A program made the translations under genes and the position numbers. Source: Myxococcota bacterium (lineage in GTDB: Bacteria > Myxococcota_A > UBA9160 > UBA6930). From it: a DNA stretch of 64,000 nucleotides. The DNA lies in assembly GCA_965223415.1 (NCBI GenBank), contig OZ245002.1, positions 1,792,001 to 1,856,000 of the forward strand, written 5' to 3'. Shown here in pieces: positions 3,847 through 60,189 of the stretch (the stretch's first letter is position 1; each line of letters opens with the position of its first letter). The notes below the pieces were generated by a model that searched no databases, was not told where the DNA came from, and was given only the letters and a program-made list of their open reading frames with translations.

Positions 3847-3865
3847 CAGAAACGATACGTCTCGT
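3847..3865. promoter_or_regulatory. Putative TetR operator site 1, lying in the spacer of a predicted ipdA promoter
   Basis: CAGAAACGATACGTCTCGT; flanked by GTTACA (3843-3848) and TATGAT (3866-3871) with 17-bp spacing; matches sites at 42383 and 60171. Confidence 0.7.
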
Positions 3866-3948
3866 TATGATATTACCCTCCTCTTCCCCGGCGGGAGTGG
3901 TGCGCCCGAGATCCGCGGCGCAGACTCCCGGCCCACCCCGGGAGGCCC

Positions 3949-4797
3949 ATGGACAAGCGCACCACCGAGGCGGAGGCCGTTGCCGAGCTTCGCTCTGGCA
4001 TGACGATCGGCATCGGCGGCTGGGGCTCGCGCCGCAAGCCCATGTCGATCGTCCGGGAGATCCTGCGCTCGCCGCTCCAGGACCTCACCGTCGTCACCTA
4101 CGGCGGCCCCGACGTGGGGCTCCTCTGCAAGTACGGCAAGGTGAAGCGGCTCGTCTACGGCTTCGTCTCGCTCGACTCGATCCCGCTCGAGCCCCACTTC
4201 CGCGCGGCCCGCCAGGCCGGTGCCATCCCGGAGGTTCGCGAGCTCGACGAGGGCATGCTCCAGTGGGGCCTCTACGCCGCCGCCCTGCGCCTGCCCTTCC
4301 TGCCCACCCGCGCCGGCCTCGGCACCGACGTCCTGCAGATCAACCCGGAGCTGCGCATGGTGGCCTCGCCCTACGAGGACGGTGAGGAGCTGGTCGCCAT
4401 GCCCGCCCTCGAGCTCGACGCCGCCTTCATCCACATGAACCGGGCGGACATGCACGGGGGCGGCCAGTACCTGGGCCCCGACTTCTACTTCGACGATCTC
4501 TACTGCATGGCCGCCAAGCGCCGCTTCATGACCTGCGAGAAGATCGTGGACACGAAGGACCTGCTCTCGGAAGGCTCGCTCCACACCCTGCGCATCAACC
4601 GCACCCTGATCGACGGCGTGATCGAGGCCCCGGGTGGCGCCCACTTCACCGAGTGCCCGCCGGACTACGGCCGAGACGAGAAGTTCCAGAGCGAGTACGC
4701 GGCCACGGCGAAGGACCCGGAGGCCTGGGACACGTTCAAGTCGGCCTACCTCGACGTCTCCGAGGCGGACTACCAGCAGAAGGTGGCGAACCGATGA
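3949..4797 (+). CDS. ipdA: Steroid ring C-cleavage hydrolase alpha subunit (class I CoA-transferase fold)
   Basis: GMTIGIGGWGSRRKPMS, YGFVSLDSIPLEPHF, DEGM motifs as in Rv3551; context. Confidence 0.9.
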   Translation: MDKRTTEAEAVAELRSGMTIGIGGWGSRRKPMSIVREILRSPLQDLTVVTYGGPDVGLLCKYGKVKRLVYGFVSLDSIPLEPHFRAARQAGAIPEVRELDEGMLQWGLYAAALRLPFLPTRAGLGTDVLQINPELRMVASPYEDGEELVAMPALELDAAFIHMNRADMHGGGQYLGPDFYFDDLYCMAAKRRFMTCEKIVDTKDLLSEGSLHTLRINRTLIDGVIEAPGGAHFTECPPDYGRDEKFQSEYAATAKDPEAWDTFKSAYLDVSEADYQQKVANR

Positions 4798-5555
4798 CCG
4801 ACGCAACCCGCGCCGAGGTGTGCGCCGTGGCGGTGGCCGAGGCCTTCCGCGGCGACGGCGAGATCCTGGTGAGCTGCTTCGGCACCACGCCGGCGGTGGG
4901 CGCCCGCCTCGCGCGCCTCACCTTCGAGCCCGACATCCTGATGACCGACGGCATCTGCTCGCTGCTGGCGAACGTCGACCCGGTGAGCGGCGACAAGCCC
5001 GAGCCGGTGGTCGAGGGCTGGGCGCCCTTCCGCTCGATCTTCGATCTGCTGTGGGGCGGGCGGCGTCACGTGATGATGTTCGCCAGCCAGATCGACCGCT
5101 ACGGCAACCAGAACTTCGCCTGCATCGGCGACCACGCCCAGCCGAAGGCCCAGCTGCTCGGCATGCGCGGCGCACCGGGCAACACGATCAGCCACCGCAC
5201 GTCGTACTGGGTGTCGAACCACTCCCCGAACGTCTTCGTCGAGAAGGTCGACGTGGTGAGCGGCGTCGGATACGACCGGGCCCGGGCGCTCGGTCCGCAG
5301 TCCTCGCGCTTCCACGACATCCACCGGGTGATCTCGAACCTCGGCGTCTTCGACTTCGAGACCCCGGACCAGCGCATGCGCCTCGCGTCGGTGCACCCCG
5401 GCGTCACGGTGGACGAGGTGGTCGAGAAGACCGGCTTCGAGCTGGCCATCGACGGCGACGTGCCGACGACGCGCGGCCCGAGCGAGGAGGAGCTGCAGCT
5501 CATCCGCGAGGCCATCGATCCGAAGGGGCTGATCAACAAGGAGGTGCGGTCCTAG
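4794..5555 (+). CDS. ipdB: Steroid ring C-cleavage hydrolase beta subunit
   Basis: TRAEVCAVAVAEAFRGDGEI, QIDRYGNQN, LLGMRGAPGNT; ATGA overlap with ipdA. Confidence 0.9.
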   Translation: MTDATRAEVCAVAVAEAFRGDGEILVSCFGTTPAVGARLARLTFEPDILMTDGICSLLANVDPVSGDKPEPVVEGWAPFRSIFDLLWGGRRHVMMFASQIDRYGNQNFACIGDHAQPKAQLLGMRGAPGNTISHRTSYWVSNHSPNVFVEKVDVVSGVGYDRARALGPQSSRFHDIHRVISNLGVFDFETPDQRMRLASVHPGVTVDEVVEKTGFELAIDGDVPTTRGPSEEELQLIREAIDPKGLINKEVRS

Positions 5556-5565
5556 ACCGCGCGCC

Positions 5566-58106: not shown

Positions 58107-59524
58107 GCCCCGACGAGTGCGATCGAGCGGCCGCGACGGCCCGCCTCGCGCACCAGCTCCTCGAAGGAGGCCGCGATCGCCCCGGTGAAGATGTCGAGGT
58201 CGGGCACCAGGTCGAAATCCGCGTTCAGGCCGAAGCAGAGCCTTCCCTCGTAGCTCAGCACGGCGATGCCGAGCCCGCCGTTCGTGCGCAGCGGCACGCT
58301 GCCGTACGCCTCGACCAGCCGCGCGCCCTTCAGGTAGAGGGGCACCTGGGGACCGGGGATGTTCGTCACCGTGAGGTGCACCGCCGCTCCGCGCAGCGAG
58401 CGCGCCGCCTGGGCCAGCATTCGCGACGAGGTCCAGCCCGCCACGCTGAAGAGGGTCTTCGCGCCGAGAGCCGGGTTCTCCGCGTTCAACATCTCGGTGC
58501 GCTCGCGCACGAGCTGGAAGCGGCGCACCGGGTCCCGCTCCCAGACCGGGAGCTCGAGGATCCACTCGCCGACGCCCTCGTTGCGCTCGCCGCTGCGTAG
58601 GCTCATGGGCAAGGCGGCGCGGAAATCGAGGATGGCCGGATTCACGTGGTGGGCCCGCAGGTAGCGGGCCACGGCGCCCGCGATGACGGTGAGCACCACG
58701 TCGTGCACCGTGCCGCCGAGCTCGCTGCGCACGCTCTTCGCCTGGTCGAAGGGAAGGCTGAGGTTGTCGAAGCGCCGGTGCGGACCGACCTCTCCGTTCA
58801 GAGGGGTCTCCGGGAGACGCTTCAGCGTGTAGCCCACCATCCTGGCCAGGGCGTCGGCGCGGTGGCGGAGATCGTCGCCGAGGTCCTCCGTCTCCTGCAC
58901 CCAGGAGGTGAGCCGTCGCATCGCTCGCCGCGGCAGCCTCGCCTGGCGCAGCACTTCGTCGCGCACCAGCTCCGCCGCCGTCGGCATGGGGCGCGGGTGG
59001 TAGGGCGGCGGCGCCTCGTAGATCTCCTCGGCGTCCGGCGAGAGCAGCACCTGCAGGAGGTCCGTCCCCGCGCCGTCGACCATCGCGCTGTGGGTCTTCA
59101 GCAGGAGGGCGAAGCGTCCACCCTCCATGCCCTCCAGCACCCAGGCCTCCCAGAGCGGCCGCGAGCGGTCGAGCCGCTGGGCCTGCACCCGGGCCGTGAG
59201 CCTGTGGAGCTGCTCGTCGCCGCCGGGTCGGGCCAGGCTGGTGTGGCGCAGGTGGTAGTCGAGATTGAACTCCCGGTCGTCCACCCACACCGGATGGTTC
59301 TCCAGCGGGATCCAGCGCAGCTTGCGCCGGTACTGGGGCACGCGGTGGAGGCGGGACTCGACGGCCGAACGGATCGCGGCGAAGTCCACGCCGCCGCCCT
59401 CGGTGGCCAGGGGACCGGGCTCGAAGATCAGCATGGCGCCGGAGTGCTGGAAGCGGCGCGAGCTCTCTCGCTCCAGCAGGCTCGCGCTCTCGTGGCTCAG
59501 ACGGTCGTAGGCGTAACGCGGCAC
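58103..59524 (-). CDS. Wax ester synthase/diacylglycerol acyltransferase (WS/DGAT) family, degenerate motif
   Basis: PVWVDD, LDRSRPLWE, KTHSAMVDG, TVHDVVL, VTNIPGP. Confidence 0.9.
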   Translation of the reverse strand: MPRYAYDRLSHESASLLERESSRRFQHSGAMLIFEPGPLATEGGGVDFAAIRSAVESRLHRVPQYRRKLRWIPLENHPVWVDDREFNLDYHLRHTSLARPGGDEQLHRLTARVQAQRLDRSRPLWEAWVLEGMEGGRFALLLKTHSAMVDGAGTDLLQVLLSPDAEEIYEAPPPYHPRPMPTAAELVRDEVLRQARLPRRAMRRLTSWVQETEDLGDDLRHRADALARMVGYTLKRLPETPLNGEVGPHRRFDNLSLPFDQAKSVRSELGGTVHDVVLTVIAGAVARYLRAHHVNPAILDFRAALPMSLRSGERNEGVGEWILELPVWERDPVRRFQLVRERTEMLNAENPALGAKTLFSVAGWTSSRMLAQAARSLRGAAVHLTVTNIPGPQVPLYLKGARLVEAYGSVPLRTNGGLGIAVLSYEGRLCFGLNADFDLVPDLDIFTGAIAASFEELVREAGRRGRSIALVGA

Positions 59525-60120
59525 TAGGCTCTCCTCGAGACCAGGCCCGTGAGGGCCAGGTCGATCATCGGCTCCACCATGTCCGGGTGCACCTCCATCC
59601 CGCGGAAGAAGAGGCGCACGGCGATCGGCCCGACGACGAGATCCGCCGCCAGGTCGGGATCGACGCCCGGCGCGAGCTCGCCGCGCTCACGGGCGCGCTC
59701 GAAGGCCCGGGCCAAGGGGAGCCGTCGGCCCTTGAGCATCGGGTCGAGCAGCTCCGAGAGATCCGGGTTGTGGGCCCGCTCGGCGGCCAGGCTCGGGTAG
59801 ACCGTGGCCAGCGGCGTCGCCAGGAAGTTCTCCAGGTAGCGCCGGAGCATGGCCTTGAGATCGCCCTCCAGGCTGCCCGTGTCCACGTCCTCGAAGGCCG
59901 GCAGCTGGCCGAAGGCCTCGACCACCAGCGGCAGCTTGGAAGGCCAGCGGCGGTAGATCGTGGCCTTTCCGACACCGGCCCGGTGGGCGACCCCCTCCAC
60001 CGTGAGGGCGGAGAAGCCCACCTCGGAGAGAAGGTCGAGGGTGGCCGTGAGGATGGCCTGGTGGGCCTCCTCGCTCCGGGGTCGCCCGGCGCTCGCACCC
60101 CCGTCGCCTCGGGACCGCAC
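59524..60120 (-). CDS. TetR/AcrR family regulator (alternative start 60162)
   Basis: GRPRSEEAHQAIL...TVEGVAHRAGVGKATIYRRWPSK; AGGAGG RBS before GTG at 60120. Confidence 0.92.
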   Translation of the reverse strand: MRSRGDGGASAGRPRSEEAHQAILTATLDLLSEVGFSALTVEGVAHRAGVGKATIYRRWPSKLPLVVEAFGQLPAFEDVDTGSLEGDLKAMLRRYLENFLATPLATVYPSLAAERAHNPDLSELLDPMLKGRRLPLARAFERARERGELAPGVDPDLAADLVVGPIAVRLFFRGMEVHPDMVEPMIDLALTGLVSRRA

Positions 60121-60170
60121 GCTCGCCTCCTTCCGCGGGAAGCCGTCGTCGGCCCCCGGCACACCTAATT

Positions 60171-60189
60171 ACGATACAGTACGTCTCGA
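60171..60189. promoter_or_regulatory. Putative TetR operator site 3 (autoregulatory)
   Basis: ACGATACAGTACGTCTCGA in the tetR/P450 divergent gap. Confidence 0.75.

Follow-up and report, generated by a model that had tools for sequence, protein, structure and literature searches.

A Ms6564-headed TetR regulator and its 19-bp palindrome as a candidate steroid regulon in an uncultured Myxococcota order

We analysed a 64,000-nucleotide stretch of a Myxococcota genome (contig OZ245002.1, positions 1,792,001 to 1,856,000; hereafter the window) in which three intergenic gaps carry a shared 19-bp palindrome, one of them in front of the gene of a TetR-family regulator (hereafter the window TetR). Judging from sequence comparisons, this protein, whose DNA-reading head is of the type found in Ms6564 of Mycobacterium smegmatis (MSMEG_6564), probably represses at least six transcription units, steroid C/D-ring genes included, through this palindrome, and repression would be relieved by a pathway intermediate. 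Computation established the sites, their genome-wide specificity, their conservation together with the TetR across the order and their match to a footprinted operator class.

The palindrome and its distribution

The three window sites lay exactly where a first-pass annotation of the window had placed them and read letter for letter as reported there. Operator S1 (CAGAAACGATACGTCTCGT, 3847..3865, 20.1 bits), whose right arm is good and whose left arm is degenerate, was located between an acyl-CoA synthetase gene (- strand) and ipdA (+ strand). Operator S2 (ACAATACGGTACGTATCGT, 42383..42401, 31.1 bits), the best site of the genome, separated an acyl-CoA dehydrogenase (ACAD) gene (-), whose start codon was 15 nt away, from a short-chain dehydrogenase/reductase (SDR) gene (+) starting about 50 nt away. 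Operator S3 (ACGATACAGTACGTCTCGA, 60171..60189, 24.0 bits) occupied the promoter gap of the TetR gene itself, between TetR (-) and the start of a cytochrome P450 gene (+). The imperfect palindrome that the annotation had described proved to be real and was better written as ACGATACG-N3-CGTATCGT, with 8-bp arms; counted by hand, S2, S3 and S1 had 1, 3 and 4 mismatches to this 19-bp consensus, respectively. All three gaps were divergent and AT-richer, as had been claimed, their cores having a GC content of 37-43% when compared to 70.7% for the window. Matches with up to three mismatches occurred twice in the window against 0.08 expected, and none of 100 shuffled sequences reached two.

The genome consists of one contig of 5.83 Mb with a GC content of 71%. 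When it was searched for ACGATAC-Nx-GTATCGT with at most one mismatch, four sites were found at x=5 and two at x=0, and the 8 other spacings tried gave no match; the x=0 matches are an echo of the 5-bp periodicity inside the motif. A spacer-less 14-bp palindrome (ACGATACGTATCGT), for which S1 and S2 were the sole 1-mismatch matches in the genome, was considered as the unit and dropped: S4 and S5 (see below) match the 19-bp form much more closely, and the ACG...ACG periodicity accounts for the 14-mer. A matrix scan of the genome had been proposed in the first-pass annotation as a check. Using a symmetrised matrix built from five sites, with S6 left out of the training set, the six top sites (20.1-31.1 bits) were all intergenic and the next match (18.8 bits) was coding. 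The three sites outside the window, S5 (genome position 3139566, 30.0 bits), S4 (2330808, 29.7 bits) and S6 (2307919, 21.0 bits), were new and stood in front of ACAD, CoA-transferase and hydratase operons. With these three further sites, the candidate regulon extends beyond the two C/D-ring loci of the first-pass annotation. Order-2 Markov genomes yielded 0, 0, 0, 1 and 0 matches of at least 20 bits to a six-site matrix versus 5 in the real genome, a comparison that is partly circular, as this matrix derives from the tested sites. With up to three mismatches allowed, matches per strand numbered 21 in this genome (control 11) and 29-47 in five congeners (controls 1-8); the regulon may be larger in the congeners, or it may have been eroded in this genome.

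Conservation analyses were performed on 40 relatives from the same genus, family and order, 32 of which carried a TetR orthologue (52-91% identity), an unusual degree of conservation. A site of at least 18.9 bits was present upstream of the TetR orthologue in 11 out of 11 loci fetched, no more than about 170 nt away in 10 and at about 400 nt in the remaining one (L016). Among public Myxococcota loci, the site preceded the TetR orthologue in 14 out of 17. Orthologues of ipdA (71-90% identity) were found in 30 of the 40 relatives, and a site of at least 18.7 bits lay 16-171 nt upstream of ipdA in 25 out of 29 loci; with a further genome, G030, whose site lay at 82 nt, the count rose to 26 out of 30. 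Both TetR and ipdA were found in 28 relatives, neither in 6, TetR only in 4 (all of them genomes 68-89% complete) and ipdA only in 2. Matches with up to two mismatches numbered 3.9 per strand on average when TetR was present (32 genomes) and 1.5 when it was not (8 genomes), and a reversed-pattern control gave 0-2. G033, a genome that is 99% complete, contained ipdA without a TetR orthologue (best match 4e-7) and had no site upstream of ipdA, which is what the model predicts for a genome lacking the regulator.

We also analysed 79 loci of TetR homologues from several phyla, selected with peptide patterns covering the recognition helix among other residues. A site of at least 18 bits occurred in the interval of about 385 nt upstream of the homologue (30 kb over all loci) in 38 of them, while the remaining 579 kb of these loci contained only 5 such sites. 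Since the selection pattern includes the helix, this result indicates that proteins with this helix have this site, not that all family members do. The genes next to the homologues varied: many of the Actinomycetota loci had major facilitator superfamily (MFS) transporters there, the Myxococcota ones P450 or KstD-like genes. The homologues of loci L067-L126 (Actinomycetota, Chloroflexota and Dormibacterota) had 37-48% identity and were preceded by the palindrome in 24 out of 62 loci; in those loci that were annotated, they often adjoined MFS transporters.

The regulator and its relation to known TetR proteins

The window TetR, encoded on the - strand at 59524..60162, combined TetR_N (2.1e-13) with TetR_C_11 (3.2e-26; Pfam), and full-length PDB matches to 2FQ4 (6.3e-26) and 2ZB9 placed it in the TetR family. 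Its longest frame opened with a GTG at 60162. The GTG at 60120, which the first-pass annotation had taken as the start, is the likelier one: it is preceded by GGAGG, and the orthologues align from residue 12-20. In G021 (contig C10, 2728749-2729335) the orthologue was split, with residues 15-107 and 126-209 in separate frames, which may reflect a frameshift or a sequencing error.

Residues 20-84 of the window TetR aligned to 4JKZ (E=1.7e-13) and 4JL3 (5.9e-12), and the recognition helices of the window TetR (GVGKATIYRRWPSK) and Ms6564 (GVGKQTIYRWWPSR) were nearly identical. Both alignments ended at residue 84. The two proteins thus share a DNA-reading head and are not orthologues, because their C-terminal domains do not align. 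According to excerpts of the structural report, 4JL3 is the Ms6564-DNA complex and Ms6564 binds 31 bp as a dimer of dimers (PMC4150764). Excerpts of the functional report state that DNase footprinting and electrophoretic mobility shift assays located the protein on two ACGAGACG inverted repeats 3 nt apart (ACGAGACG-N3-CGTCTCGT), and that this palindrome is also present in the Ms6564 promoter (PMC3273814). As far as these excerpts go, the operator described here is alike in having two 8-bp inverted repeats, ACGA(G/T)ACG, a 3-nt gap, a length of 19 bp and a copy in the regulator's own promoter (S3). In contrast, the targets here are steroid and acyl-CoA catabolic operons, the position of the sites suggests repression and the host belongs to another phylum. 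The class of the operator is already known as the Ms6564 palindrome, while its use for the catabolism of methylhexahydroindanedione propionate (HIP) in Myxococcota does look new. The Ms6564-type operator may be the hallmark of a large TetR family, spread over several phyla, whose members are ordinary repressors acting locally. Such a reading sits oddly with Ms6564 itself, for which the excerpts report 339 predicted targets and the role of a master regulator acting positively on DNA repair and cell-cycle genes (PMC3273814).

At the level of the protein sequence, the window TetR is distinct from both KstR and KstR2. It matched the KstR model of NCBIfam (NF033703) with 35.3 bits, against a cut-off of 280, in the helix-turn-helix (HTH) region only, and the KstR chains in the PDB matched it at about 3e-7 over residues 24-88 only. 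The KstR2 chains 4W97 and 4W1U were present in the PDB set and gave no match at E<=1e-3; that the regulator is a non-KstR2 TetR, as first proposed, was therefore supported, and the failure of the KstR model extends this to KstR. The KstR2 motif, reported as unseen in the gaps, was indeed not found there: the consensus quoted in the first-pass annotation (AnCAAGnnCTTGnT) had no match with up to one mismatch in the three gaps, and its 1-mismatch matches elsewhere in the window (14518, 20712, 48278 and 54575) fell outside any site gap. The KstR-type consensus (TnnAACnnGTTnnA) had no exact match in the window. The genome contained 8 matches to TetR_C_24, the C-terminal Pfam family of KstR2; none was near the ipd loci and the best of them reached KstR2 at just 1.2e-6.

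In function the parallel with KstR2 (Rv3557c, HIP-CoA-responsive, Actinobacteria) would be close. Its regulon comprises ipdAB, ipdC, echA20, fadA6, ipdF, fadD3, fadE30-33 and two SDR genes and serves HIP catabolism, according to excerpts of PMC5380842; to that extent the two systems would share a gene set, a TetR repressor and a palindromic operator in divergent gaps. They differ in that the proteins show no detectable sequence relation, the window TetR carries TetR_C_11 and the operator is distinct from AnCAAGnnCTTGnT. KstR, which controls the upper cholesterol pathway in Actinobacteria, would be similar as an autoregulating TetR repressor of a multi-locus steroid regulon, but the sequence similarity is confined to the HTH. 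EdcR, a TetR repressor of oestrogen degradation in Caenibius tardaugens, binds a palindrome that overlaps promoter elements and has a weaker operator copy at its own gene, as excerpted from PMC8700777. Compared by that description only, EdcR would resemble the window TetR as a non-actinobacterial TetR repressor of steroid catabolic operons and differs in its operator (TnnCnnTACnAnTnGTAnnGnnA), in its upper-pathway oestrogen targets and in its effector, which is the steroid itself.

Target operons and the TetR locus

The gene labels of the first-pass annotation agreed with the Pfam and NCBIfam calls. On the - strand side of S1, an acyl-CoA synthetase gene (2323..3834; Pfam AMP-binding) occupied a FadD3-like position divergent from ipdA; its NCBIfam matches were all sub-threshold, including the FadD3 family (205 bits versus a cut-off of 657). 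A divergent ligase/CoA_trans pair also flanks the site in a relative (L032). The genes on the other side were all on the + strand. ipdA (3949..4797), for the alpha subunit of the C-ring hydrolase, matched PDB 6CO6/6CO9 over residues 2-279 (E=3.4e-104), and 6COJ and 6CON similarly, all of them IpdAB entries. Its stop codon overlapped the ATG (ATGA) of an ipdB-like CoA-transferase beta subunit gene (4794..5555; Pfam CoA_trans). An ipdC-like gene for an NMO/FabK-like flavin reductase followed (5566..6633; Pfam NMO 6.3e-72, with a FabK-like NCBIfam match), in line with the description of IpdC as FabK-like in excerpts of PMC5380842. The block continued with an echA20-like crotonase gene (6638..7399; PRK07938, 342 bits versus a cut-off of 260) and an ACAD gene (7400..8559, start approximate, the ACAD domains beginning at about residue 198 of frame 6811-8556). 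Further on lay a fadA6-like thiolase gene (9524..10780; PRK07801, 717 bits versus 591), an SDR gene in an ipdF-like position (10790..11692; PRK07791, 496 bits versus 373) and a gene for an IpdE2-like ACAD subunit (11693..12826), whose best NCBIfam match, IpdE2, scored 204 bits, below the cut-off of 450. The assignment of PRK07938, PRK07801 and PRK07791 to Mycobacterium tuberculosis genes is presumed, in part from Table 1 of PMC5380842. One block therefore contained ipdA and ipdB, echA20-, fadA6-, ipdF- and ipdC-like genes and an IpdE-type ACAD, which is the HIP gene set.

The block around S2 had a fadE30/IpdE1-like ACAD gene on its - strand side (41181..42368; Pfam ACAD), whose best PDB match was 6WY9/6WY8 (Tcur3483, 1.2e-58), followed downstream by an SDR gene (40391..41173; PRK07831, 426 bits versus 336) and a MaoC-like hydratase gene (39852..40352; Pfam MaoC_dehydratas 1.6e-30). 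On the + strand side lay an SDR gene (42451..43245, with an alternative ATG at 42442), just below the cut-off of PRK07814 (323 versus 346 bits), and a luciferase-like monooxygenase gene (43256..44323; Pfam Bac_luciferase 3.9e-52). Elsewhere in the genome, S4 separated a DUF3604/alpha-beta-hydrolase unit from a unit of CoA-transferase III, a two-gene MaoC-type hydratase and ACAD, S5 preceded a 393-aa ACAD gene, and S6 separated a luciferase-like monooxygenase gene from an ACAD pair, one member having 397 aa and the other being a short subunit of 324 aa. The region at 2.30-2.35 Mb to which S4 and S6 belong also contained a KshA_C/Rieske gene, a KstD-like flavoprotein, three P450s and a sulfatase. 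For the ACADs beside S2, S5 and S6, the best PDB matches were 6WY8/9 (Tcur3483) and 4X28, presumably steroid-type heterotetrameric ACADs. Orthologues of the S2 ACAD flanked sites in two relatives, G005 and G020 (88% and 72% identity), those of the S5 ACAD in seven and that of the S6 ACAD in one. When only the best site of each genome was considered (30 genomes, 29 relatives plus this one), the adjacent gene was an ACAD in about 12, an SDR in 3, an IpdA-like CoA_trans in 2, a CoA_transf_3 in 2 and a P450 in 1.

Two side observations concern these loci. In G002, contig C126 carried a TetR orthologue (9361-9972) and an S2-type site (15378-15396) only 5.4 kb apart, whereas the distance in the window was 17.8 kb; the extra window DNA between S2 and TetR includes a DDE transposase gene (49412-50779) and two-component and EAL genes. 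DUF3604 proteins were encoded both in the window (31850-34072) and at genome 2328579-2330771, and one of them heads the - strand unit of S4.

At the TetR locus, tetR, a wax-ester synthase/diacylglycerol acyltransferase (WS/DGAT) gene (58103..59524; Pfam WS_DGAT_cat and WS_DGAT_C; TIGR02946, 364 bits versus 310) and a carboxylesterase-family gene downstream of it (56292..58100, start approximate; Pfam COesterase 2.8e-99) ran head to tail on the - strand, and the tetR stop overlapped the WS/DGAT start, in keeping with the operon first proposed. The TetR-WS/DGAT order was repeated in a relative (L049). With this arrangement, the repressor would control its own synthesis together with that of the ester-lipid enzymes.

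On the + strand side of S3, the P450 gene was a pseudogene. Only an N-terminal fragment of 79 aa (60211..60450) was left in the window, cut by an IS21-family element (60390..62691, +) with istA and an istB-like gene (Pfam rve, Mu-transpos_C_2, HTH_38), and the other 335 aa were found at genome 2434486-2433479 (-). Accordingly, residues 5-85 of the TetR-adjacent P450 of L049 matched 60169-60393 and its residues 81-415 matched genome 2434486-2433479. The first-pass annotation had placed a P450 under the control of the TetR: S3 does lie in the tetR/P450 gap, but what it would control is this fragment. The 2.3-kb IS21-family element had 18 full-length copies in the genome with 99.8-100% identity, plus partial ones, and both P450 pieces abutted copies in opposite orientation, the C-terminal piece that at 2434481-2436782. 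An insertion and a subsequent inversion of 582 kb between two copies would explain the split, as would an assembly join at the repeat. A separate 874-bp unit with an IstB-like gene (62692-63566) had about 8 further copies in the genome; the copy numbers of these insertion sequences point to recent, active transposition.

Where the P450 divergent from TetR was intact in relatives, its best PDB match was CYP125MRCA (8.9e-59); in other relatives TetR was divergent from a flavoprotein, best matched by the 3-oxosteroid 1-dehydrogenase 7P18 (9.8e-63), followed by a P450. No P450 frame was found beside the TetR orthologue of G005 (L006). P450 genes were numerous in the genome, where a single P450 query had at least 39 separate tblastn matches among the matches listed. 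At L131 (genome 4145705-4147629), a TetR_C_24-type TetR divergent from a P450 formed a second, paralogous TetR/P450 pair; this P450 was 47% identical to the TetR-adjacent P450 of relatives.

Mode of regulation, alternative explanations and meaning

In the mechanism we propose, the TetR bound at a palindrome inside or against promoters would block RNA polymerase until a pathway intermediate binds the C-terminal TetR_C_11 domain and releases the repressor; from the regulon and the analogy with KstR2, a steroid-derived CoA thioester such as HIP-CoA would be the most likely intermediate. Under this control would come the tetR-WS/DGAT-carboxylesterase unit, sharing its site with the now-broken divergent P450, the fadD3-like/ipdABC-echA20-fadE-fadA6-ipdF block, the fadE30-like/SDR block, and the three ACAD, CoA-transferase and hydratase units elsewhere in the genome. 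The core of the first-pass annotation, a non-KstR2 TetR that would regulate HIP catabolism, is supported by comparative evidence (sites at 11 out of 11 TetR and 26 out of 30 ipdA loci, and the Ms6564-type head). We infer binding by the window TetR, repression over activation, and the effector.

Repression appears the likeliest sign of regulation from the position of the sites. A promoter prediction tool found GTTACA-17-TATGAT at S1 (3843-3871, +), with the operator inside the spacer, and at S4, S5 and S6 the palindrome also occupied the spacer of sigma-70-like pairs (TTTACA-17-TATGAT twice and CTGGCA-18-TATCAT). A dimer or a pair of dimers in the spacer would exclude RNA polymerase, and repression is the rule among TetR proteins that autoregulate from divergent gaps. 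We consider it very unlikely that the TetR instead activates transcription, be it at every site or at a subset, as reported for Ms6564. In excerpts of PMC3273814, Ms6564 regulated its targets positively and was bound upstream of the -35 hexamer, overlapping it only partly, and no promoter was predicted around S2 or S3; the palindrome at S1, S4, S5 and S6, however, is where a repressor would sit. The earlier claim that sites 1 and 2 both fill promoter spacers was supported by the tool at S1, and no promoter was predicted at S2.

The switch could also be the same and its purpose a different one, namely the catabolism of lipids in general or of alicyclic acyl-CoAs together with the turnover of storage lipids, with an ordinary fatty acyl-CoA as the effector. 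The genes that flank the sites are mostly from generic families (ACADs, CoA-transferases, hydratases, SDRs, WS/DGAT and carboxylesterase), and the most widely conserved target besides ipdA is the stand-alone 393-aa ACAD with its site in seven relatives. We nevertheless regard this as unlikely: the ipdA-ipdB-ipdC-echA20-fadA6-ipdF set, assigned to HIP catabolism in excerpts of PMC5380842, carries the site in 26 out of 30 relatives, and the neighbours of TetR in relatives are KstD-like and CYP125-like. The best PDB matches of the ACADs at the sites, 6WY8/9 and 4X28, presumably of the steroid type, point in the same direction. Highly improbable, in our view, is that the window TetR only autoregulates and that the catabolic sites are read by another regulator, such as the paralogous TetRs at genome 5590424 or 3031173. 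These share ...TIYRRWPDK and ...TVYRRWPTR with the window TetR, but they are only 45% identical in the HTH, no top-60 matrix match lies near either gene, and it is the presence of the window TetR orthologue that tracks ipdA and its site across relatives. Finally, TT(T)ACA ... TATGAT-like flanks shared by four sites could suggest a mere promoter feature without a dedicated regulator. This explanation is scarcely credible, as what is conserved is a palindrome inside the spacer, a part that is not conserved in ordinary promoters. The palindrome is also confined to six sites in the 5.83-Mb genome, accompanies TetR homologues in several phyla regardless of the adjacent genes and matches a footprinted protein-binding site (PMC3273814, in excerpts).

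Several observations weigh against repression of a steroid regulon by the window TetR and have to be set beside the evidence above. The left arm of S1 is weak, with 4 mismatches in 16 positions, and no promoter was predicted by the tool at S2 or S3. Four of the 30 ipdA loci had no site (G008, G038, G010 and G033); G008 and G038 both have TetR, the G010 locus offered only 58 nt of upstream sequence, and G033 has been discussed above. G007 has no TetR orthologue and yet gave four matches with up to two mismatches, which looked GC-rich. When the S2 site was anchored on the SDR gene, it was found in only 2 out of 29 loci (G001 and G002, of the same genus, both 90% identical), with no site within about 1.5 kb in the loci of the 27 other relatives; SDR orthology below about 70% is uncertain because the genome has a 66%-identical paralogue. 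Among distant homologues with the same recognition helix, only 24 out of 62 had a strong upstream site. The relatives share ancestry, so that the counts overstate their independence. This genome has 87 TetR_N matches, and the proximity of TetR to sites therefore proves little by itself; two of its paralogous TetRs (5590424 and 3031173) have similar recognition helices. The 339 predicted targets and positive regulation reported in the excerpts on Ms6564 are a further point, given that the motif class may accordingly be loosely read and that homology does not reveal the sign of regulation.

Altogether, the Ms6564-class operator appears to be tied to steroid C/D-ring catabolism through a non-KstR2 TetR in an uncultured Myxococcota order, an association that appears new in the literature searched, in which no paper on steroid catabolism in Myxococcota was found, judging from titles or opening lines of abstracts. 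Bacterial regulators of steroid degradation are "a very short list", with KstR and KstR2 the best characterised, in the words of an excerpted report (PMC8700777). A broader and more tentative idea, which we hold to be possible and somewhat doubtful, is that one Ms6564-headed TetR would act as master repressor of all sterol catabolism in this largely marine order and would sense a steroid CoA thioester. If so, it would span side-chain ACADs and hydratases, KstD- and CYP125-like upper genes, HIP genes and steryl- and wax-ester turnover (WS/DGAT and carboxylesterase), the tasks that KstR and KstR2 divide between them in Actinobacteria would fall to a single TetR, and this TetR would have been recruited from a widespread family that elsewhere adjoins MFS transporters. 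For the C/D-ring pathway of Myxococcota, the candidate regulon offers a specific regulator-operator pair that can be tested, and it would represent a non-orthologous replacement, in which another TetR and another operator govern the same enzyme set. Steroid-related regulons in uncultured metagenome-assembled genomes could also be read out with this operator.

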